Below are positions 13,811-26,372 of a stretch of DNA of 64,000 bases, piece after piece. This stretch comes from a virus: positions 12,922 to 76,921 of IMG/VR virus record IMGVR_UViG_3300022204_000004. One strand, 5' to 3'. The position numbers and the translations under genes are program-made. The notes below the pieces were generated by a model. The model worked only from the letters and a program-made list of their open reading frames with translations. It made no database searches and was not told where the DNA came from. The first letter of the stretch is position 1. Each line of letters opens with the position of its first letter.

Positions 13811-13959
13811 GTTTTTGTCTTTTAAATTTCTTCATTGCTGCTTTTACTGTCGTACTCCAGCCTTTAGGCTTGTAAGAGCCATCGGTAATAAGAGTTTCAA
13901 GAAACCCTGTACGTTTGCATTTTCTGAATACTTTCATTGTTTTTGCGAGTTATAAAATT

Positions 13960-16829: not shown

Positions 16830-17327
16830 TTATAAAATTATTCCAAATTTAAGTCTTAAATACCAAACTGTGTGTGTATCCTCACCCCATATTTTACTAT
16901 CGGCTTTGTAATCAACACCTATTTTGGCTCCATAATACCATTTTTCATCTATATAATTCTCTATTCCAAAGTCATGACCAAACAATGCGTGTGGTCCACC
17001 ATCACGAAGAATGAAGCCGGGTCTTAAAACCCCTAAATGTAATCTCCATCTATCCATATTGGTGTGATAATTGAAACCAAGAACGGTTCCTTGAAAATGT
17101 AAATAGTCTATATCATTCAATGCTGGAAACCAATAGACCTCAGCATTAAAATAGAGCAATGTCATTTGATACTCAATTTGAGTAGCAATATTGAACCCAT
17201 AATCAAACTTATCGTTATGTGTGTTCTTGTCTGCAAGTTCAGTTCCAACTGAAAGAGTGAACCTTTTGTCCTGTGAATATCCCCATAAAACCAATAGCAT
17301 TAGAGGGATTGCTATTATTCGTTTCAT
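16830..17327 (-). CDS. Putative outer-membrane beta-barrel protein
   Basis: Bacteroidota-type signal peptide ending YSQ, alternating aromatic strands, C-terminal WYLRLKFGIIL. Confidence 0.6.
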   Translation of the reverse strand: MKRIIAIPLMLLVLWGYSQDKRFTLSVGTELADKNTHNDKFDYGFNIATQIEYQMTLLYFNAEVYWFPALNDIDYLHFQGTVLGFNYHTNMDRWRLHLGVLRPGFILRDGGPHALFGHDFGIENYIDEKWYYGAKIGVDYKADSKIWGEDTHTVWYLRLKFGIIL

Positions 17328-17475
17328 TTTATCCTATGATTGTATGTATTTGTAATTCATTTAATCGAGAACAAAAATCAGGTTTTCTAGAGTGCCATCT
17401 CTTTCCATAAATATCAATGGCATGTTGCTTGATATTTATCTTTTCATTGATTGTTAACTGATGCCAGGTTCTCAT

Positions 17476-17838
17476 TTATAGCCTAAATATACGAATGATA
17501 TCTTCAGCTAATGTACTGAGCTTGGCATAGTTGTTCTGACCACCTGTATAATCCTTATAACTACTTGCCGTTCTTACAAGTATTTGTTCAGGTGCTCTCA
17601 TGTTCCATCGAACATCACTTAAGCTTATATAATAAGCCTGTTCCCCTACACTGAAAAAGCCACTTATGTAAAAGTGTCCTTTGTTCAGTTGCAAGGAATG
17701 ATATCCATCTATTTTCAAAAGCTTTTTATGTATGGCTTTTTTAAAGTCCATATAAAACTTGTTGAACTCAGGTGTAGTATGTCCTCCACTTCCGAAGTAA
17801 TCCTCACCTTGTCTGATTTTTTCAATTAGATCTGTCAT
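17476..17838 (-). CDS. Hypothetical phage/ICE-type protein
   Basis: GHFYISGFF, YISLSDVR, RTA..KDYTGG.N motifs. Confidence 0.6.
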   Translation of the reverse strand: MTDLIEKIRQGEDYFGSGGHTTPEFNKFYMDFKKAIHKKLLKIDGYHSLQLNKGHFYISGFFSVGEQAYYISLSDVRWNMRAPEQILVRTASSYKDYTGGQNNYAKLSTLAEDIIRIFRL

Positions 17839-18265
17839 TTTGTTTTATTAATTCTATTAGTATTGTACTTATTGAATTCAAAGTGTTGTCCAAGATGTTC
17901 TGTTGCTCTGGCGATATGTCACCACTGCATTCATATATCGTTAAAAACTCTTTGAACAAACCCTCTACCACAATCTTTGTTCTGTGGTTAACTTTTTCGC
18001 TCAATCCAAGATACCTTAACTCATCTTTCACATAATCATCCCAAAATATTCTTTCGATTACTTCAAGACTTTCGTTAGATTCATCAGTATTACCGTATTG
18101 AACATAGTAAGTTCCGTCATTACAGACATCAATGTAAAGTCCATTCACATAGGAATAAACCCTTCTATTGATATCTTCGTGTTCTGTGTTTATTCCCCAT
18201 AACTGACAGTGCACAAACCAAGGCAACAATACCTTGCTTCGTTGAAATTCCTTAAATGTTACCAT
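17822..18265 (-). CDS. Hypothetical protein
   Basis: ORF in operon. Confidence 0.6.
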   Translation of the reverse strand: MVTFKEFQRSKVLLPWFVHCQLWGINTEHEDINRRVYSYVNGLYIDVCNDGTYYVQYGNTDESNESLEVIERIFWDDYVKDELRYLGLSEKVNHRTKIVVEGLFKEFLTIYECSGDISPEQQNILDNTLNSISTILIELIKQNDRSN

Positions 18266-18531
18266 TATGCATCAACTTTTTGTAGCAATGATGGATGACA
18301 ACTGTATCTCACATTCCTTTGTTTATCGAGTATGACAATGTTCTTTGGGTTTATTTTCACAACCTCATAAACTTTGTCAGCTCCCTCTCTTGTTACAAAA
18401 ACCTGTGATCCAACACTAAGTTCCTGTACTGCATTTGCGCTCATGATTCTTAAAGCTTCTTTACGAACCAACGCAAGTTCGTTTGTTGTCAAATCATATA
18501 ATGACTTGAATACTTCTTTTAAATTACTCAT
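18265..18531 (-). CDS. Hypothetical protein with SH3/KOW-like C-terminus
   Basis: LSVGSQVFV...YEVVKINPKNIVI...HPSLL. Confidence 0.55.
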   Translation of the reverse strand: MSNLKEVFKSLYDLTTNELALVRKEALRIMSANAVQELSVGSQVFVTREGADKVYEVVKINPKNIVILDKQRNVRYSCHPSLLQKVDA

Positions 18532-18538
18532 AGATTTA

Positions 18539-18676
18539 TTAATAAAAGGTTAAACATTCATCTTCATCATCATAATCACCACTACATTGTGAGCATAATG
18601 ATTCACTATCTTGTTGGCCACTATAATTGAGACCAATGAATTTTCCACAATTCATACATGTTATCGGTTCCGGCAT
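18539..18676 (-). CDS. Small CxxC-CxxC zinc-finger protein, 45 aa
   Basis: Manual translation MPEPITCMNCGK...LCSQCSGDYDDEDECLTFY. Confidence 0.5.
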   Translation of the reverse strand: MPEPITCMNCGKFIGLNYSGQQDSESLCSQCSGDYDDEDECLTFY

Positions 18677-18993
18677 TATTTCAAAGTATTAAGTTCTTCG
18701 TAAGATTCCCAATCAGATTGCTCCCAAGCATCTCTTGTCAGCCCTCTGCCTTTCTCAAATGATTTCAGCTTGATTTTCTCAATATGCTCATCATAAATCT
18801 TTGGTAGATCAATACCACGAGAAGCGGCCTCGGTCTCCAAATTTTGCAATTTGCCATATCTATGTGGCTCATTGTAGTTCACAACATGGATAGACGTATC
18901 TATCTTATGCCAAAGACCTATAGGAATAGCACTGTCAATGTGCCTTAATTCTTCATCACTATAGATCAGCTTCATTTTCTGTCCTTTGTTCAT
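18676..18993 (-). CDS. Hypothetical protein
   Basis: ORF in operon. Confidence 0.55.
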   Translation of the reverse strand: MNKGQKMKLIYSDEELRHIDSAIPIGLWHKIDTSIHVVNYNEPHRYGKLQNLETEAASRGIDLPKIYDEHIEKIKLKSFEKGRGLTRDAWEQSDWESYEELNTLK

Positions 18994-19007
18994 CTTTAAT
19001 ATTTTAA

Positions 19008-19331
19008 TTAATTAATCCCCTTTAATAGCTTACACCTCGGTACCTGTACAAAGCCTGACCTAACAATACCAAGAGGCGATGATACAATACCAGCCTCCAT
19101 AAGAGATGCCAATATTCCTCCATTCTCAGAATAGTCCTTGATGAAAACCTCATCAGACTCCAATTCCCTGTCAGGTAAATTCACTGAAGCCATAGCAATA
19201 GGTTCTCCACCATCACTATCTACCAACTCCAATGCCTTCCTACCATTTACATATTGTTGTAACAACACATCACAGTTCCACTCCCGAAACTTACATGTGC
19301 CTATCTTTTTGTTGAAAAAATCTCTTTCCAT
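19008..19331 (-). CDS. DUF4313-like protein
   Basis: Y.NG..ALEL....GEP.A..SVNLP....FIKDYSEN.G....L...GI......RSGFV. Confidence 0.65.
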   Translation of the reverse strand: MERDFFNKKIGTCKFREWNCDVLLQQYVNGRKALELVDSDGGEPIAMASVNLPDRELESDEVFIKDYSENGGILASLMEAGIVSSPLGIVRSGFVQVPRCKLLKGIN

Positions 19332-19363
19332 TTGTTATAATTTATTTATCCTAAAAACCAATT

Positions 19364-19727
19364 AAAAGTGGCTCCCTATAACCACTTTACAATAATGAGC
19401 ATAAACGCTGATAAGCCACTCCAAGCCTATCCAAAGCATCTAACAACAACTATAAGCCTACCCGTTAGCAATCAAACAAGTCTAATTATTAACCAAATAA
19501 TGAACAGATAAGCAGAGAATAGCAGCGTCTAGACAGTTCGCTTCGTGTGTCTTAGTGTGGCTTAATAGCTATAGAGATATAATACTATATATACTCTCTT
19601 TAGCTTAAATCAGCGTTAAGCCCAGTGTTTATGAGGGTTTACAGCGATTTAACGGCTTGAAAAAGTGGTTCTGTGTGACCACTTTCTATCCAATATTAGC
19701 CAAAAGTGGTCCGTAATAACCACTTTT
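19364..19727. promoter_or_regulatory. Three palindromic boxes AAAAGTGGY-N8-ACCACTTT; putative replication origin/operators
   Basis: Copies at 19364-19388, 19661-19685, 19702-19727; AT-rich stretch at 19570-19600; directly upstream of the RepL-like gene. Confidence 0.7.
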
Positions 19728-19754
19728 TATGTTGTCTATATCAGTCTAATAATG

Positions 19755-19762
19755 TATATTTG
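19755..19762 (+). promoter_or_regulatory. Bacteroidota -7 promoter box for the repL-like gene
   Basis: TATATTTG matches TAnnTTTG. Confidence 0.65.
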
Positions 19763-19784
19763 ACTGTTCGCAAAACAACATATT

Positions 19785-20189
19785 ATGGCAAGTAACCTAG
19801 AGATCCATTCTCACATATCGACTTATCTTGAGAGCCAACGTACAGACATCCTAACGGATGACTTCGGTTACTCTACCTACACGGCTCCCAATACAATGTT
19901 CCACATGCATAATGCAATGCCCGAGATCATGATAGCTATGCCTCCTCGCGTCCTCAAGGTTTGGCTTCGTAGTATCTCTCGTCTTAAACGAAACCACGAC
20001 CCTGTTATTGCCTGTACCATTGTCATGGGCTACACGCACTACAAGGATATCGTGTCCAAAGGCTCCTACTACAAAGCCGTTAAACAGCTTGAAGAGGACA
20101 AGTTTCTGATACCTACCCTCAATAAAAAGATTTATATTGTTAATGTTAAGCATGTCAACAAACTTTATAAGCCTAAGTTTGAGATATAG
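19785..20189 (+). CDS. RepL-like winged-helix replication protein
   Basis: VSKGSYYKAVKQLEEDKFLI....KIYIVN wHTH pattern; lone plus-strand gene in the left arm. Confidence 0.6.
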   Translation: MASNLEIHSHISTYLESQRTDILTDDFGYSTYTAPNTMFHMHNAMPEIMIAMPPRVLKVWLRSISRLKRNHDPVIACTIVMGYTHYKDIVSKGSYYKAVKQLEEDKFLIPTLNKKIYIVNVKHVNKLYKPKFEI

Positions 20190-20193
20190 TTTG

Positions 20194-20275
20194 TATATTT
20201 GACATGCATAATGATGGTGTTTTTGCGAACAACTTCATAACAGAGCCACTTAAACTTCCTGCTAAGTGGCTCTTG
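20194..20275 (+). ncRNA. Putative sRNA antisense to the repL-like 5' UTR and start codon
   Basis: TATATTTG box 20194-20201; 20207-20231 complementary to 19765-19787; hairpin AGAGCCACTTA/TAAGTGGCTCT 20242-20273. Confidence 0.65.
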
Positions 20276-20279
20276 TCAT

Positions 20280-20810
20280 TTATCTTTGTTCTGACATTAG
20301 ATTGGGATTAACTATTCTTAAGTTCTCAGAACAGTCTGCCAATTTCTTGACGTTCTTCACAAGCTCATAGCGTAGCCATTCGCCTTTACTACGTGACTCA
20401 AACTTCCATCTGTCAAGCTTAACACCTAATGGGTGCATCATCTCCTCTTTCTTGCTGATGGCCTCATTGACCAGCTCTAGTCGATAATGCTCAGGGATAT
20501 CACTGTTGCCAGTAGGCACAAAGTGCTTTAGCCTGAAAGGGTTCTCATGGATCTCTTGGCTCATGTTGTCGGAGCAATAGGTTGTTCCCACATACTCCTG
20601 ACCAGGCAACAAGTGAGGTGTTGTACCTCGTCTGAGCCTACTGGCCAACTTGTTGCTGAGCTCCACAGTAGCCTGTGTCCATGGAGAGTTCGGAGGAAAC
20701 TGAGTCCTCATACAATAGTAACCTGTCAATGGTTCCATACCATCAACCACTTCGTGTGTTGGGTTTGCTTTAACCAAGCAATACTCAATTCTAACTTCTT
20801 TTGCATTCAT
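20280..20810 (-). CDS. Hypothetical early protein
   Basis: ORF in operon. Confidence 0.65.
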   Translation of the reverse strand: MNAKEVRIEYCLVKANPTHEVVDGMEPLTGYYCMRTQFPPNSPWTQATVELSNKLASRLRRGTTPHLLPGQEYVGTTYCSDNMSQEIHENPFRLKHFVPTGNSDIPEHYRLELVNEAISKKEEMMHPLGVKLDRWKFESRSKGEWLRYELVKNVKKLADCSENLRIVNPNLMSEQR

Positions 20811-20812
20811 AA

Positions 20813-21235
20813 TTAATTATTTGTTTTTGCTGCTCTTTGGCGTACCCAAGGAGCATAGATTAATGTATATCCAAGACCAGCAACAGTCAATGACGCTGCT
20901 ATTGTTGGACCTAATTGTGCGGTAGCTATGAGAGAAGCACCAAAGATGATGACATCAACTGTCTTGTTCCCTTTGATGATTATGTATCTCACATACTTGT
21001 TAGTCTCTGCCAATGCTACCAAGCCGGCTAGAGTTACTATTCCCACGAATAGATATGTGCCTATTGCAGCACCTATTCCTAGTCCTAGTACTGTCAGGCC
21101 ACCAAACACAGCCGCCCCTACGGATAGAGGCAATGGCTGTATCTCTGGCACATCAATAGTCCACTTCTTCTTAGGAGGTGGATCAGTGATACTACCACCC
21201 TGTTCCCAAGGTGGTTTCTTCCAATTCAATCCCAT
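20813..21235 (-). CDS. Multi-pass membrane protein
   Basis: Gly/Ala-rich hydrophobic helices. Confidence 0.65.
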   Translation of the reverse strand: MGLNWKKPPWEQGGSITDPPPKKKWTIDVPEIQPLPLSVGAAVFGGLTVLGLGIGAAIGTYLFVGIVTLAGLVALAETNKYVRYIIIKGNKTVDVIIFGASLIATAQLGPTIAASLTVAGLGYTLIYAPWVRQRAAKTNN

Positions 21236-21236
21236 G

Positions 21237-22151
21237 TTATGCAGGGATAGGTTCTGAAACTGTTACAGCCTTTGGCATGATAGCCTTGACTGTGCTCTTG
21301 ACTGCTCGCTGTGGAGCTGTAAGTATGGCTTTCGCTCTGTCATCTATAGCTTGTTTGATTTGATCACGATCATCATCGGTGATATCAAGCTTGTGAATGA
21401 TAAGGGCTTCGCCATCTCGTAATAGGTCAGTGCCTTTCTGCATCTGTTTCACAATGAACTTACCAATGTTGGTTGCTCCTTGTGCTGGTGTGTGTAGGCT
21501 TGTGCCTAATCCGAATGTTACTGCTCCCGCAGTCTTTCTGCTGTACCAATTCACTTTGGTGAACATGGTTACAGGCTGTTGTACTTGTTGCTCTTGTGGA
21601 GCGGTTGTTTGTTGTTCCATTTCTTTGTGTGTTTTAATGGGTTCAACTATTGGTTGAGGACTTTCCTCAACTTCTTCTTCGTCTATTTCCAACTGTTCTT
21701 CGACAGACTCTATGTCTGCTTCTGATAGTTGTGACTTGGAGTAGACTACTCCATCTGGGTCTACTGCGTAGTCGTCTTGGTCGTCGTCAGGACCGACATC
21801 GTAATGGTCAGTGTATGCCTGTTCATCGGCATACGGATCTTCGTCCGGGTCTTCGTCCTCGACTGTAGCTGTTCCGAAGTTTGGAACAGGTCCGAATGCA
21901 TTCTCAAGGTCGTCCTTGATGTCGCTCGGTAGCTCGGCCACGTCTACTGCTTTAGTGCTCATCGTCGGTGGATTCTCTACTTTGTAATCATCCCCGAAGT
22001 TTGACTTCATAGCTCTGAAGTATTGACCTCTGGTCATCCCGTTATCACGGTCAACTTCTTTACTGTGGATGAAGTGATCTCTACTTCCGTCCTCGAACTC
22101 TAGCATGAAGCCTTTGGCTGTCTCTACTACGATTGCATTTACTTTACTCAT
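21237..22151 (-). CDS. Early protein with highly acidic central region
   Basis: D/E-rich segment EDEDPDEDPYADE...IDEEEVEE. Confidence 0.7.
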   Translation of the reverse strand: MSKVNAIVVETAKGFMLEFEDGSRDHFIHSKEVDRDNGMTRGQYFRAMKSNFGDDYKVENPPTMSTKAVDVAELPSDIKDDLENAFGPVPNFGTATVEDEDPDEDPYADEQAYTDHYDVGPDDDQDDYAVDPDGVVYSKSQLSEADIESVEEQLEIDEEEVEESPQPIVEPIKTHKEMEQQTTAPQEQQVQQPVTMFTKVNWYSRKTAGAVTFGLGTSLHTPAQGATNIGKFIVKQMQKGTDLLRDGEALIIHKLDITDDDRDQIKQAIDDRAKAILTAPQRAVKSTVKAIMPKAVTVSEPIPA

Positions 22152-22190
22152 TTGATTTATATTTAAAGGTTAATAATTATTTATTGTTTA

Positions 22191-22361
22191 CTATTTTGCA
22201 TGGTGTCTGTAGCTTTTATATGCGGCTACGCCTCCATCTATTATTCCGAATATCCCTGCGACTGCATGTTTGATACCGGTGTTGATGACATGTTGTGCAA
22301 CAGCTGTTGTGTTTTCTACTTGTTGCTCTCTCCTTGATTTTGGTGTCTGAATTGTGATCAT
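22191..22361 (-). CDS. Small hypothetical protein, 56 aa
   Basis: Manual translation MITIQTPKSRREQQ...YRHHAK. Confidence 0.5.
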   Translation of the reverse strand: MITIQTPKSRREQQVENTTAVAQHVINTGIKHAVAGIFGIIDGGVAAYKSYRHHAK

Positions 22362-22540
22362 GACTTGTTGTTTTAATTGTTTGTTTGTGTCTCCGTTGGT
22401 CTTAGGCGGTTGACTATACCTCTTGATGACATATCAAGTATCGCTCTTAATATGTCTGTTTGGGTTAATGATTTATAATTGATTTTAATAGTTCTTTAAT
22501 TTCCTTTTTAATAGCCTGATGATTGACAGGCTTAACCTTC

Positions 22541-22813
22541 TTAAGCATTGGTTACGGCTTTTAGTTTCTCTGATTTATCCATGAAATCGACTAGTTTATC
22601 TATGACTTTGGGATTGGTATATACCTTGGCCATTAGATCTACCATAGTTTTGACTTGTTGGATGATTGCTTTGAGCTCTGATTGTTCTTCTTCTGGTGCT
22701 CCTAGCTCTTGCATTGTTACTTCTGCTATGACTTCCATTAAGTTTACTCCTGAGTGTACTAAGGGTACTAATGTGTCACTGATTTCTGATGTGATTTGTT
22801 CTCTTGTTTTCAT
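22541..22813 (-). CDS. Hypothetical helical protein
   Basis: ORF in operon. Confidence 0.6.
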   Translation of the reverse strand: MKTREQITSEISDTLVPLVHSGVNLMEVIAEVTMQELGAPEEEQSELKAIIQQVKTMVDLMAKVYTNPKVIDKLVDFMDKSEKLKAVTNA

Positions 22814-22815
22814 GT

Positions 22816-23016
22816 TTAATTGTATTTATTTATTAATGATTCGATTTTGCGTTCAAGTATTCCTGTCCTAGCCTGTACCTTGGTGTGATAATGGAATGAT
22901 ACATACCTTGGTATTTTCTTAATAGCTCTCTTGAAGTTGAACTCGTTTAATAGCTTGTTGTTTGTAGCTATTTGTTGTTGGTATCTCTCGATACGTTGTT
23001 GAATATTTGCATTCAT
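22816..23016 (-). CDS. Hypothetical protein
   Basis: ORF in operon. Confidence 0.55.
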   Translation of the reverse strand: MNANIQQRIERYQQQIATNNKLLNEFNFKRAIKKIPRYVSFHYHTKVQARTGILERKIESLINKYN

Positions 23017-23056
23017 GATTGTTGTTGTCGATTGATAATCTGCTGACCACAGGTTT

Positions 23057-23170
23057 TTAATTGTTAATACAGTTTATACATATTGTTGTTCCAGGCATTA
23101 ATGGTCCTACGTCGGCATAACAGCCTCCACATTTAGAACATTCTTCAGGGTGATTGCGTGTATCTTCCAT
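23057..23170 (-). CDS. Small CxxC-CxxC zinc-finger protein, 37 aa
   Basis: MEDTRNHPEECSKCGGCY...TICINCINN. Confidence 0.45.
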   Translation of the reverse strand: MEDTRNHPEECSKCGGCYADVGPLMPGTTICINCINN

Positions 23171-23172
23171 GA

Positions 23173-23334
23173 TTAGCGATGTATTGCATAAGCACAAGCG
23201 GAAGGCAGTGACTTAATGAAGTTAATAATGCAGTGAATACGATGTCTGCGAGCAAGTGTAAGTTGCTCTTTTGATTGCAAGTAAGCCTCGTATTGAGCTT
23301 CAGCAATTTCAGGTAATGATGAGTAATGTCTCAT
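23173..23334 (-). CDS. First gene of the leftward arm, 53 aa
   Basis: Manual translation MRHYSSLPEIAEAQY...AIHR. Confidence 0.45.
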   Translation of the reverse strand: MRHYSSLPEIAEAQYEAYLQSKEQLTLARRHRIHCIINFIKSLPSACAYAIHR

Positions 23335-23524
23335 GATTAAAAAGGATTTAGTTAAAACTTAAAAGACTCTCTTTTAAGCGATATATTATTTGAGGGGGGC
23401 TACCCAAAAACGAAACATCGATGGGGATCAAATGATATAGTGTTCCGCGAGCGAGGCTTTTTTAAAAGGGGGGGCTAGTTGTGTGCCACACAGAGGCGTG
23501 GGGGTATTCTTACGGGTCAAAAAA

Positions 23525-23632
23525 TAATTTTGGATAGGTTATGAAGAATTGTTATATTGTGTGGGGATTAATTAATATTTAACCCTTTCCGGAACTTGTC
23601 AGAGAGTATCTTCAAACGGAAAGGGTTTTTTT
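23525..23632 (+). ncRNA. Putative short RNA unit 1
   Basis: TAATTTTG box 23525-23532; stem AACCCTTTCCG/CGGAAAGGGTT 23581-23627 with 25-nt loop and T-tract. Confidence 0.45.
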
Positions 23633-23633
23633 G

Positions 23634-23727
23634 TATATTAGCGGTATTATGAATCAGCTTTAATTAGCTAAGGAGGTTCATGGTAGATTTGGGTGGTTGA
23701 GCGGCAGGGATGTCGCTCACCTTTTTT
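23634..23727 (+). ncRNA. Putative short RNA unit 2
   Basis: TATATTAG variant box; ATGAATC/GGTTCAT stem; terminator GGTTGAGCGGC/GTCGCTCACC plus T6. Confidence 0.45.
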
Positions 23728-23816
23728 ATATGGGTTTTAAAAAAATATCGCGAACCCTACGGGCTGTATATTAGGGTGTTGCGGGGGCGGTGTTTGGATT
23801 ATACATTATTTTTTCA

Positions 23817-23905
23817 TAGTTTTGTTATATAAAATCGATACAACTATGGAGTGTTATTTGAATAACCAAGGATGAAACCCTTACTTTTGCGAGTAGGGGT
23901 TTCTT
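23817..23905 (+). ncRNA. Putative short RNA unit 3 (or 9-aa mini-ORF MECYLNNQG)
   Basis: TAGTTTTG box 23817-23824; stem GAAACCCTTACT/AGTAGGGGTTTC 23874-23903. Confidence 0.4.
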
Positions 23906-24077
23906 AGTTATAGTTGTTAGATATGGAAGAAGAGAAGGAAAAAGAGGGATTTGACATGAGGCACATGTACACCTTTCCAAAGGAATATATTTTCACACAG
24001 AGAGTTTGGTTTGATTACTCAAAATTCTGTAATAATTTAAAAACGTATATTTGATACATAACTTTAAATTTTTTATC

Positions 24078-24431
24078 ATGAAAAACATTTTTAAGTATTG
24101 TTTAATAGGGCTGATTTTGCTCTTCTTTACAACAACGGCCTTTGCGCTATCACAAGACGTTCCTGACGTCGACTATGGAAACCCTAATTATTGGGTTTTA
24201 TTATTAACGCCTTTAGTTGTTCTAGGAGCAACGTCTCTTGTCCACAAATACTTGCCTACGATCCCTGATGTGTTGGTTCTGGCAGTTGTGGGAGTTATAT
24301 CGGCACTCGTTTCTTTACTTAACAACCTACTTATTGCACCTGATATCAGTTGGCTTGAAAGCTTCTTACTAGGACTATCGGCTACGTTTGTGCATCAAGT
24401 TTATAAGAAGATAACCGAAAGCTCTGCATAG
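24078..24431 (+). CDS. Membrane protein with signal peptide (holin-like topology)
   Basis: Signal peptide plus 3 TM helices; TATATTTG box at 24046-24053 supports the 24078 start. Confidence 0.6.
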   Translation: MKNIFKYCLIGLILLFFTTTAFALSQDVPDVDYGNPNYWVLLLTPLVVLGATSLVHKYLPTIPDVLVLAVVGVISALVSLLNNLLIAPDISWLESFLLGLSATFVHQVYKKITESSA

Positions 24432-24504
24432 ATTAAATTAAAAAGGCTATATTTATAGTCTCTAAAAACCTTTTCTGCCCTCAAGTAGAATTAATAGCCA
24501 TTTG

Positions 24505-24533
24505 ACCCTCTTAAGAAATTGAGAGGGTTTTTT
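24505..24533 (+). terminator. Intrinsic terminator
   Basis: ACCCTCTTAA-GAAA-TTGAGAGGGT plus T-tract. Confidence 0.8.
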
Positions 24534-24587
24534 GTGTCTAATATTTATTCATTAGATTTGTTTATTATTAATTAAAAAATCAGAAGA

Positions 24588-25088
24588 ATGGCAAAAGCAA
24601 AACAGAACGGTCAGGAAGACACTCCTAAACCAAGAGGCAAAAAACAGATAAAGGATGCAGTCCTTTATGATGCTTCAGTAAAATCCGAAAATATTCAGGA
24701 AAAGATTTCTGAAGAAAACAAAAGGATTTTTCAATCTAACAACACTTTGGATATTGATGAAGGACTTATCAATATGCCTCCTATCGAACTTTCGGACGAA
24801 GAAAACAAAAGACTTGCAACACAGTCTTTGGAAAAGGAACTTCGTGCAATGGAAATTTCCAACTCTACAACAAAGCATGATAACGGACTGAATGTTTGGA
24901 GACTTGTATCCAAGACAGAGAACAAAATTCTTCAATGGACAAATGTTGTTACTGCAATGAAAATTGGAACAAGTCGTGGTGTTTTGGTTTGTGTAAAAGA
25001 ATCTCATAGTGACAAGGTTTCTTTATCTACTACATTTATACAGAATGGGATATTGGAAGAGAAGGACGGACTTTGGATATTGAAGTAA
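24588..25088 (+). CDS. Hypothetical protein, first gene of the pre-terminase operon
   Basis: TAGATTTG box 24553-24560; ORF. Confidence 0.7.
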   Translation: MAKAKQNGQEDTPKPRGKKQIKDAVLYDASVKSENIQEKISEENKRIFQSNNTLDIDEGLINMPPIELSDEENKRLATQSLEKELRAMEISNSTTKHDNGLNVWRLVSKTENKILQWTNVVTAMKIGTSRGVLVCVKESHSDKVSLSTTFIQNGILEEKDGLWILK

Positions 25089-25089
25089 G

Positions 25090-25527
25090 ATGAAAAAACT
25101 TGATCAACTAACAATAGGACATTTGACTTCTTACGCAGAAATGCTTACTAGGTCAGTACAGGAATTGGATGAATTTGGAATGCAGACTACTGAATGTGCA
25201 ACTAATGGGGGGATAACGGTGAATGAGAGAGATGAGGTACATAAGAAGCTGGTTCAACAAATTCAAATATTTGAGGACAAACGTATATTGCTCGTTAAAG
25301 AGCTTACAAAAAGAATCAAAAGGGATATAGGTGTAAACAGAGGTCCGGGTGATGTCGCAATAATGCTCAATGGCTTAGCGAAAGATTTTCCGATGATAGG
25401 AAGGTCAAAAGCCGAGATAGAACTTTTGAAGAAGAAAGACGAAATCATAGCCAATTCAGAGCCAGAGGTAAAAAAACCCTCAACAAAAGGAAAGTCATCT
25501 GTTAAAGCATCTTTATCTAAAATCTGA
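25090..25527 (+). CDS. Hypothetical protein
   Basis: ORF in operon. Confidence 0.65.
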   Translation: MKKLDQLTIGHLTSYAEMLTRSVQELDEFGMQTTECATNGGITVNERDEVHKKLVQQIQIFEDKRILLVKELTKRIKRDIGVNRGPGDVAIMLNGLAKDFPMIGRSKAEIELLKKKDEIIANSEPEVKKPSTKGKSSVKASLSKI

Positions 25528-26291
25528 TGTATCTAGTAGAATTGGACAAACATACAGGACTTGTCAAAGTTGATGGCGAATTCGATGGCGTAAGAGCTAT
25601 AAAGGAATTTCGTGAAGTTATAAACCATCCCGATCTTGGGGTGGTTTGCTTTACAGCCATAGCCTTAACAGTCGATTATCTTACTCCTATCGCTCATTAC
25701 AAAGAGAGCGACAGACCCTATAAGGCAATGGAGCAAGCTACAAAAGGAAACCGTAGAGCCTTTGTATGGAACCAAGACTTGATACAGGAATGTTTGATAA
25801 AATACAATGAACTACAGTACAATCCCTCTTTAGAAGAAAAGAGGACATTGGACTTTATGTTATTGGAAAAGCTGAAAGAGATTAAAGAGCTCAAGGATCA
25901 GAATGCTACGGAAGGAATGTTGGAAGAGGTTACTGAGGAAACAATCCATGAAGTTCTTATAGATAACCTGGACGTAAAAAAACTTTTGGGAGACCGAGAA
26001 TGGACAAACCTTTCGGAAGTGGCACAAAAGTCATTTATAAGAAAGGCGAACACAAGGATTATAGCACCTTACAATCAAAGGCTAAAAGAGAAAAAGAGTG
26101 AGAAAGATGAAGAAAGAATGCTCGTTCTCTTTAAGCAGTTGAATACGATTAAAGCTTTGATAGAGAATTTCAACAAAGCAAACGAAGACAGTGATTTACT
26201 GGCAGATGGTCCTGTTAGGAACGGATATAAGTTAACTAGATTAGAAGAAAAAGCTGAAAATGAAAACTCATTTTATCACCAAGAACATTAA
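25527..26291 (+). CDS. Hypothetical protein, candidate terminase small subunit
   Basis: Helical protein directly upstream of TerL; positional inference only. Confidence 0.4.
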   Translation: MYLVELDKHTGLVKVDGEFDGVRAIKEFREVINHPDLGVVCFTAIALTVDYLTPIAHYKESDRPYKAMEQATKGNRRAFVWNQDLIQECLIKYNELQYNPSLEEKRTLDFMLLEKLKEIKELKDQNATEGMLEEVTEETIHEVLIDNLDVKKLLGDREWTNLSEVAQKSFIRKANTRIIAPYNQRLKEKKSEKDEERMLVLFKQLNTIKALIENFNKANEDSDLLADGPVRNGYKLTRLEEKAENENSFYHQEH

Positions 26292-26297
26292 GCCCTT

Positions 26298-26372
26298 AAT
26301 TGGATGCGGTTTTTCTTCTGACTTTTTACTTTGTCCAATTTAAAAAGAGGGTCACTTTTGTGGCTCTCTTTT
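26298..26372 (+). ncRNA. 3' UTR stem-loop with antisense loop, followed by terminator
   Basis: Stem AATTGGATG/TGTCCAATT, pyrimidine loop 26307-26331; terminator AAAAGAGGGTCAC/GTGGCTCTCTTTT 26343-26372. Confidence 0.55.

Follow-up and report, generated by a model that had tools for sequence, protein, structure and literature searches.

A conserved downstream anti-leader element predicted to silence its own gene, which encodes a putative winged-helix protein, in a phage lineage

The icaR mRNA of Staphylococcus aureus pairs its 3′ UTR with its own 5′ UTR, and in S. epidermidis the icaR 5′ UTR is the target of IcaZ, an sRNA encoded just downstream of icaR; the 3′ element of icaR is not conserved among staphylococcal species (PMC7821165). 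In Vibrio cholerae, OppZ and CarZ are autoregulatory sRNAs derived from 3′ UTRs (PMC7398697). The phage module described here, built around a gene that we call ORF134, is like icaR/IcaZ and OppZ/CarZ in its proposed mechanism and unrelated to them in sequence; what is new is that both forms appear to occur in one locus and that the target is a leader lacking a Shine–Dalgarno (SD) sequence.

With icaR/IcaZ, the phage locus shares a gene for a small DNA-binding regulator whose initiation region is paired by same-strand sequence directly downstream. The pairing sequence is the gene's own 3′ UTR or a separate downstream sRNA, and the outcome is translational repression, which for the phage is a prediction. 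The two systems have no homology, however, and the phage locus appears to combine both forms with one terminator. Its target is an SD-less Bacteroidota-type leader of ~20 nt, paired from +1 to the AUG, rather than through an anti-SD motif. In contrast to the icaR element, the phage 3′ element is kept across the phage lineage, and the phage module is known from sequence alone. The likeness to OppZ and CarZ is one of negative feedback through RNA: a transcript's 3′ end supplies an sRNA that pairs with that same transcript and inhibits its translation, as the phage sRNA is predicted to do. RNase E releases OppZ and CarZ (type II), which depend on Hfq and target an internal cistron, whereas the phage RNA would come from a dedicated promoter (type I) and its target is the leader of the first and only gene.

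Other comparisons are more distant. Long-range 5′–3′ pairing keeps full-length hok mRNA translationally inert; the product is a membrane toxin, and after 3′ processing the mRNA comes under the control of the overlapping antisense RNA Sok. The phage locus resembles hok/sok in the long-range 5′–3′ mRNA pairing but falls outside that family, as ORF134 is a 134-aa predicted winged-helix protein and an opposite-strand box or unit, when looked for, was not seen. Among phages, c4 of P1 and P7 and CI of P4 are same-strand, non-overlapping antisense RNAs encoded ahead of their targets and released by processing of the transcript that they share with them; repL of P1 is under overlapping antisense control. 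Like c4 and CI, the RNA predicted here is on the strand of its target and would pair with the target's initiation region, but it lies downstream of the target and has its own (predicted) promoter. Nor does it belong with copy control of plasmid rep genes of the RNAI/CopA type, in which an opposite-strand antisense RNA overlaps its target: here, anti-leader and target share one strand and are separated by about 420 nt.

The ORF134 locus

The locus was found in a 64,000-nt stretch of DNA (hereafter, the window; GC ~35%) from a 76.9-kb IMG/VR virus record with a completeness estimate of 97%. Genes on the − strand form a block reaching ~22.2 kb, and from ~24 kb the structural genes follow on the + strand; ORF134 is convergent with a − strand operon ending at 20280 and divergent from an operon starting at 19331. 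The large terminase has only ~25% identity to crAss-like phage terminases and also matches those of Flavobacterium and Cellulophaga phages. The window DNA found no match in the phage collection, and DNA of the phage is present in metagenome runs from sediment, wetland and estuary; a search for RNA runs containing the stretch returned none. The lineage is probably distantly crAss-like, with Flavobacteriaceae as the probable host. A frameshifted copy of the ORF134 family, in two frames with 44–48% identity and lacking the RNA module, is found on a 220-kb contig from a Flavobacteriaceae MAG (L052:1501-1828), which is a hint at the host group.

The features of the module, in window coordinates, are as follows.

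19755..19762, + strand: P1, a Bacteroidota-type −7 box (TATATTTG) inside the 12-mer at 19753-19764
19765..19787, + strand: leader and AUG of ORF134, starting with the conserved core (U)UCGCAAAA; the entire stretch can pair with the anti-leader
19785..20189, + strand: ORF134 (134 aa), the sole + strand gene within the − strand block
20194..20201, + strand: P2, a second −7 box (TATATTTG), 4 nt past the stop codon and inside the 12-mer at 20192-20203
20205..20232, + strand: anti-leader, the complement of 19765-19790, containing the anti-core UUUUUGCGAA
20242..20273, unstranded: GC-rich hairpin of 11 bp, the terminator common to the mRNA, the predicted sRNA and the convergent − strand operon ending at 20280
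20206..20280, + strand: sRNA of ~73 nt, predicted from its bases, running from the P2 start to the terminator; the same bases are the 3′ UTR of the P1 mRNA

The −7 box consensus was taken from PMC7366714, and the P1 mRNA is predicted to start ~4–7 nt past the box, near 19767. The original prediction had pointed to a 12-mer, TGTATATTTGAC, at 19753-19764 and 20192-20203; both copies are present as stated, and the 64-kb window has no further exact copy. As a special repeat, however, the identical 12-mer did not hold up, as in other loci the boxes have only the TAnnTTTG consensus in common. On the − strand, 17211-25285 contains zero TAnnTTTG boxes, though the operons starting at 19331 and 22151 fall inside it, in contrast to the lone + strand gene with its two perfect boxes; the early/middle genes of the − strand may use a different promoter type or polymerase.

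The complementarity of 20207-20231 to 19765-19787 claimed at the outset was confirmed as an imperfect reverse complement. The duplex computed by RNAduplex (−22.6 kcal/mol) joins 13 + 8–9 leader bases, leaves one leader A unpaired and bulges twice on the 3′ side. After mononucleotide shuffling of the 3′ region, the energy was −11.3 ± 2.5 kcal/mol (z −4.6), and 0 of 300 shuffles were as good. The 11-bp hairpin is also present as described, its arms (20242-20252 and 20263-20273) being 100% complementary, and the T run after it is poorer than at the nine other loci with the module. No terminator was found between the ORF134 stop and the anti-leader, or anywhere from the stop to the hairpin at 20242-20273, so the P1 mRNA carries the anti-leader at its 3′ end and has a 3′ UTR complementary to its own initiation region. 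When the 516 nt from leader to hairpin were folded, the 5′–3′ helix was present in both the minimum free energy (MFE) and the centroid structure. A variant check in contigs of four runs gave one silent-looking change within the ORF, an A>G at 20075; wherever contigs from other samples covered the leader, P2 or the anti-leader, these were unchanged.

As a chance baseline, we used 2315 pairs of −7-like boxes lying 300–900 nt apart in all loci gathered, for which the mean duplex energy was −12.5 ± 4.2 kcal/mol. Against these arbitrary pairs, the box pair of the window (−24) was within the best ~1% only, so that the single instance is not decisive; the pairing gains its significance from being conserved in orthologous loci.

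By its AlphaFold model (pLDDT 92.8), ORF134 is a winged-helix DNA-binding protein. Residues 40-126 match the winged-helix domains of ORC/Cdc6, plasmid RepA WH1, Zur, CRP and TubR at Z 6–8.5, and in Foldseek, where the best E value was not below 0.08, the top rows were all winged helices. Pfam, NCBI-style naming and a PDB sequence search assigned no family name to it. The gene had been described as a repL-like replication initiator, which we could not uphold: the Pfam RepL HMM (PF05732) was unmatched by ORF134, by the six-frame genome (E up to 10) and by 30 of 31 relatives, the remaining one reaching E 0.11, and the fold is that of a generic winged helix. Only similarity in ESM-Atlas, where the nearest clusters are annotated as RepL (score 0.95, 23 of 30 hits), points to RepL, and we keep the label from this language-model similarity as a lead only. 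ORF134 is like the RepL (PF05732) replication proteins of plasmids and phages in being a small winged-helix protein by its model, and differs from them in having no HMM match.

Between the start of the leftward operon (19331) and P1, the palindrome AAAGTGG-N10-CCACTTT is found three times, with unrelated spacers.

19365-19388, unstranded: first copy of the palindrome
19661-19685, unstranded: second copy of the palindrome
19702-19728, unstranded: third copy of the palindrome

Three related loci (L040, L002 and L035) each have two copies of their own locus-specific palindrome, 55–115 nt before the ATG. These palindromes are candidate ORF134 binding sites, either operators or origin iterons. The cumulative GC-skew minimum and the three palindromes lie near ORF134, the skew being confounded by the strand switch. 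ORF134 probably binds at the palindromes next to it, and would do so as either a regulator or an initiator.

Conservation and covariation in related loci

An exhaustive HMMER search placed ORF134 homologues in about 40 clusters with few close relatives, the closest homologue (P0002) having 82% identity. The 31-sequence family alignment was too diverse for locus searches; loci were gathered via the terminase 6 kb away and by small alignments of the ORF134 protein, giving 13 distinct homologue loci; scans of viral contigs with single proteins (ORF134, its neighbour, the L035 protein and P0003) yielded zero additional loci.

The layout of the module is found in 10 of the 13 loci (own, L045, L046, L048, L011, L050, L040, L002, L051 and L035), with protein identities to that of the window of 27–48%. 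All ten share one order: a box TAnnTTT(G/A), the leader, the ORF and its stop, a second box, the anti-leader, and a GC-rich hairpin with a T run on the + strand. This recurrence supports the claim of an RNA-level anti-leader (anti-AUG) element that lies downstream of the gene on its strand and does not overlap it. The gap from box to leader is 3–5 nt (14 nt in L011), and the leader usually starts with (N)UCGCAAA. Each of the 12 homologous loci in which the gene is intact has a TAnnTTT(G/A) box at the P1 position. The second box, TAT(A/C)TTTG, lies 4–11 nt past the stop in 10 of the 10 loci with the module and is followed by a spacer of 0–55 nt before the anti-leader. When the 3′ intergenic regions were aligned, just two islands stood out as conserved: the P2 box (TATNTTTG, 10 of 10) and the anti-core, UUU(U)GCGA. 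Boxes of the TAnnTTTG type occur in this genome once per 1300–1800 nt per strand; given this rarity and a 10-nt interval past the stop that is occupied in every one of the ten loci, the second box is not a product of chance. At the level of sequence, all ten thus have the mark of a type I 3′UTR-derived sRNA, a predicted promoter where the parent gene ends.

In L010 and L004, which lack the 3′ module, the ORF has a C-terminal extension and the leader core is absent too. A distant homologue in a cultured phage, gp103 of Tenacibaculum phage Gundel_1, lies inside an operon and has no module. An Rfam search returned zero matches.

Covariation in related phage genomes had been proposed as a check, and the complementarity proved to be cognate-specific. 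The conserved core and anti-core are CGCAAA and UUUGCG; outside them, the AUG-adjacent blocks vary between loci and are complementary within each. L035 swaps the whole core (leader AUCUCUAAA, 3′ element UUUAGAGAU), and L046 has a core variant (leader AGCAAAUA, 3′ element UAUUUGCU). The pair adjoining CGC/GCG is T-A in the window and L040, G-C in L045, A-T in L048 and L011, and U.G in L050; the next pair out is G-C in the window, L050, L040 and L002, A-T in L045 and T-A in L048. One or both of these core-flanking positions are mismatched in L002, L011 and L051. The second helix, beside or over the AUG, differs from locus to locus (CAUAAU, CUUGAU, UUUAGAUU, UUUAGA, CAUAG, GAUAUG, AACAAUG).

Since several rows of a full-length MAFFT alignment had the short leader and the anti-leader in the wrong place, we used anchored comparisons and cognate versus non-cognate permutations instead. 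With the core removed from both partners, duplexes between leader tails and sRNA heads summed to −95.5 kcal/mol for cognate partners, as compared to −54.4 ± 6.5 kcal/mol for derangements (z −6.3), and none of the sampled derangements was as low as the cognate sum. When the strongest locus, L011, was left out, alone or together with one of the two closely related loci L040 and L002, z was −4.5 to −4.9, again with no sampled derangement as low. In L011 itself, a 91-nt leader is matched in blocks by the 3′ element (−42.8 kcal/mol).

The helix begins at the predicted mRNA +1 in nearly all loci and reaches or covers the AUG in 8 of 10. Pairing between the two ends of the mRNA, raised in the original prediction as a foldback, was also recovered in folds of the whole P1-to-terminator RNAs (500–650 nt): the leader pairs with the 3′ element in the MFE structure in 9 of the 10 loci, and mean pair probabilities of leader and 3′ element are 0.4–0.9. 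The foldback is absent from the full-length fold of L040, and the pairing in L002 is weak (−12 to −13.5 kcal/mol).

Proposed mechanism and competing explanations

Translational self-silencing is the probable function of the module, by an anti-leader that would act from two RNAs: the mRNA itself, in its 3′ UTR, and an sRNA of 72–123 nt from P2. The host sigma-A RNA polymerase would start the ORF134 mRNA at P1, about 18 nt ahead of the AUG, and in the resulting ~510-nt mRNA the 3′ anti-leader would pair with its own first ~20 bases and the AUG, forming a foldback in cis. P2, which is also of host type and lies 4 nt past the stop, would give rise to an RNA of ~73 nt in which the anti-leader, in a weakly structured 5′ domain, is followed by the common terminator, and which could pair with nascent mRNAs in trans. 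A finished mRNA would close on itself, and the P2 RNA could close nascent ones. The separate RNA is argued to be made as well because the box past the stop is invariant; with the foldback built into the P1 transcript, this led us to choose a combined cis and trans model. The sRNA and the hok-like foldback, offered as options in the original prediction, are probably not mutually exclusive, because transcription from P1 has to cross the anti-leader before it reaches the terminator common to both RNAs. We found no case for a conserved small peptide encoded by the P2 transcript: in the window, the 35-codon frame passes through the terminator, and L045, the only other locus read for such a peptide, has no ATG between the P2 box and the terminator.

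Leaders in B. thetaiotaomicron are typically 23–32 nt long, have no SD and depend on A residues before the AUG (PMC7366714). The leader in the window is about 18 nt long and A-rich. As SD-less initiation in Bacteroidota takes place on an open A-rich leader, a duplex from +1 to the AUG should block initiation, and the duplex may also form a substrate for RNase III. The net effect would be that the winged-helix protein is held at a low or pulse-like level. What the sequences establish is the architecture of the module, its conservation, its cognate-specific complementarity and a pairing that is plausible on thermodynamic grounds; the firing of P2, the pairing of the RNAs in vivo, the sign of the effect, the involvement of an RNase and the role of the protein are our inferences.

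It is rather unlikely, in our estimate, that the 3′ UTR acts solely in cis on its own leader and AUG, as in icaR, hbs and hok, with the post-stop box being nonfunctional as a promoter or used otherwise. The anti-leader is necessarily part of the P1 transcript, the 5′–3′ helix is present in full-length folds of nine of the ten loci, and a second 3′-end hairpin in the same phage (described below) is complementary to the first leader of its operon and has no box, all of which a cis-acting foldback would explain. What it leaves aside is the occurrence of TAT(A/C)TTTG amid variable bases in all ten loci, which is hard to explain without promoter function, and the identity of P2 to P1 over 12 nt in the window.

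The duplex might instead have a positive action, with the 5′-terminal helix shielding the mRNA from 5′-end-dependent decay rather than repressing translation. The protective 5′/3′ UTR interaction of B. subtilis hbs is a precedent (PMC7821165), and a helix that begins at the predicted +1 in nearly all loci would suit such a role. This reading is improbable, however, as the helix reaches or covers the AUG in most loci and, in the window, also spans the A-rich tract used by Bacteroidota for initiation (PMC7366714).

We also give little credence to a DNA-level inverted repeat, serving as paired protein sites (looping or operator) or as recombination sites of an invertible segment that holds the gene and P2. 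ORF134 is a DNA binder by its model, and an inversion would point P2 at the leftward operon. Because G-U pairs on the transcribed strand are A-C mismatches on the other, we compared + and − strand duplex energies; a G-U asymmetry was absent, with five loci each way, and this neutral outcome does not formally separate RNA pairing from a DNA repeat. Eight of 10 loci also retain the sequence of the core, CGCAAA, and a different constraint could therefore account for some of the signal. However, when both orientations were sought in the 13 loci and in contigs of four runs, the second was not found: the gene has one orientation in 13 of 13 loci, and the contigs of the four samples are collinear with zero strand-change joints (contigs can miss rare forms). 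The two sides of the repeat also differ in bulges, G-U positions and block spacing. In L045, L050 and L011 the anti-leader blocks adjoin, yet their leader counterparts are 5–18 nt apart, an unevenness that is tolerable for RNA helices and by which DNA repeats serving as sites should not vary. In addition, the complementarity runs over locus-specific sequence to the AUG, an extension for which a protein site has no use, and proteins more plausibly bind at the separate palindromes.

Chance, or a decaying remnant of a duplication, is highly improbable: about 1% of arbitrary box pairs reach a comparable duplex energy, but the match recurs with cognate-specific complementarity at the orthologous place in ten loci that are not near-identical DNA and whose proteins are 27–48% identical to the window's, and one duplication cannot yield a direct copy of the box together with an inverted copy of the leader. 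Transposon-like terminal repeats were ruled out by gene synteny in diverged phages.

Possible further pairings and wider meaning

Elsewhere in the window, an operon at 24588-26291 is flanked by a second leader and 3′ hairpin.

24573-24588: leader of the operon, AAAAAAUCAGAAGAA, ending at the A of the first gene's ATG
26298-26340: hairpin after the operon, whose loop region, UUCUUCUGACUUUUU, is complementary to the leader at 14 of 15 positions

The hairpin sequence is conserved in L004–L008 and the leader motif in L004. By its complementarity, this pair may be a second 3′-to-5′ pairing device, one without a promoter box.

Copies of the core also occur at two other places. At 13937-13952 on the − strand, CUCGCAAAAACA immediately adjoins the ATG of a 46-aa ORF that follows a terminator, and 11 nt are complementary to the anti-leader; at 23868-23900 on the + strand, UUUUGCGA lies in the loop of a terminator-like hairpin in the ORF-free region at 23.5–23.9 kb. 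With four copies of TCGCAAAA in the window versus 2.8 expected, the count is not above chance, so these copies at 13937 and 23868 are leads only. In related phages, box pairs with very strong leader/downstream complementarity (−29 to −30 kcal/mol) were seen at L010:6640-7706 (= L017:1841-2907) and L038:12979-13714; these may be repeated promoter–terminator units like those at 23.5–23.9 kb of the window.

We put forward, as a tentative possibility, that the lineage uses anti-leader RNAs encoded at 3′ ends as a general device for SD-less hosts, in which the ORF134 module would be a two-tier switch, 13937 and 23868-23900 would be targets in trans, and 24573/26313 would be a second instance. In such a switch, the cis foldback would inactivate the finished mRNA while the promoter-driven sRNA would titrate nascent ones, perhaps being relieved or enhanced by transcriptional interference from P1.

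To our knowledge, translation control without SD pairing is still poorly understood, and the literature that we searched held no described RNA regulator in a Bacteroidota phage. The module is compact (~530 bp) and conserved, and its parts are separable: two host-type promoters, a leader of ~20 nt, the anti-leader and a terminator. It could be transferred to Flavobacterium or Bacteroides reporters for studying leader occlusion, and, since both solutions known from icaR (its own 3′ UTR and a downstream sRNA) are present in one locus, a direct comparison of cis and trans action is possible. If the winged-helix protein is an initiator or a switch protein of the phage, the module would time a key early decision or set its level.
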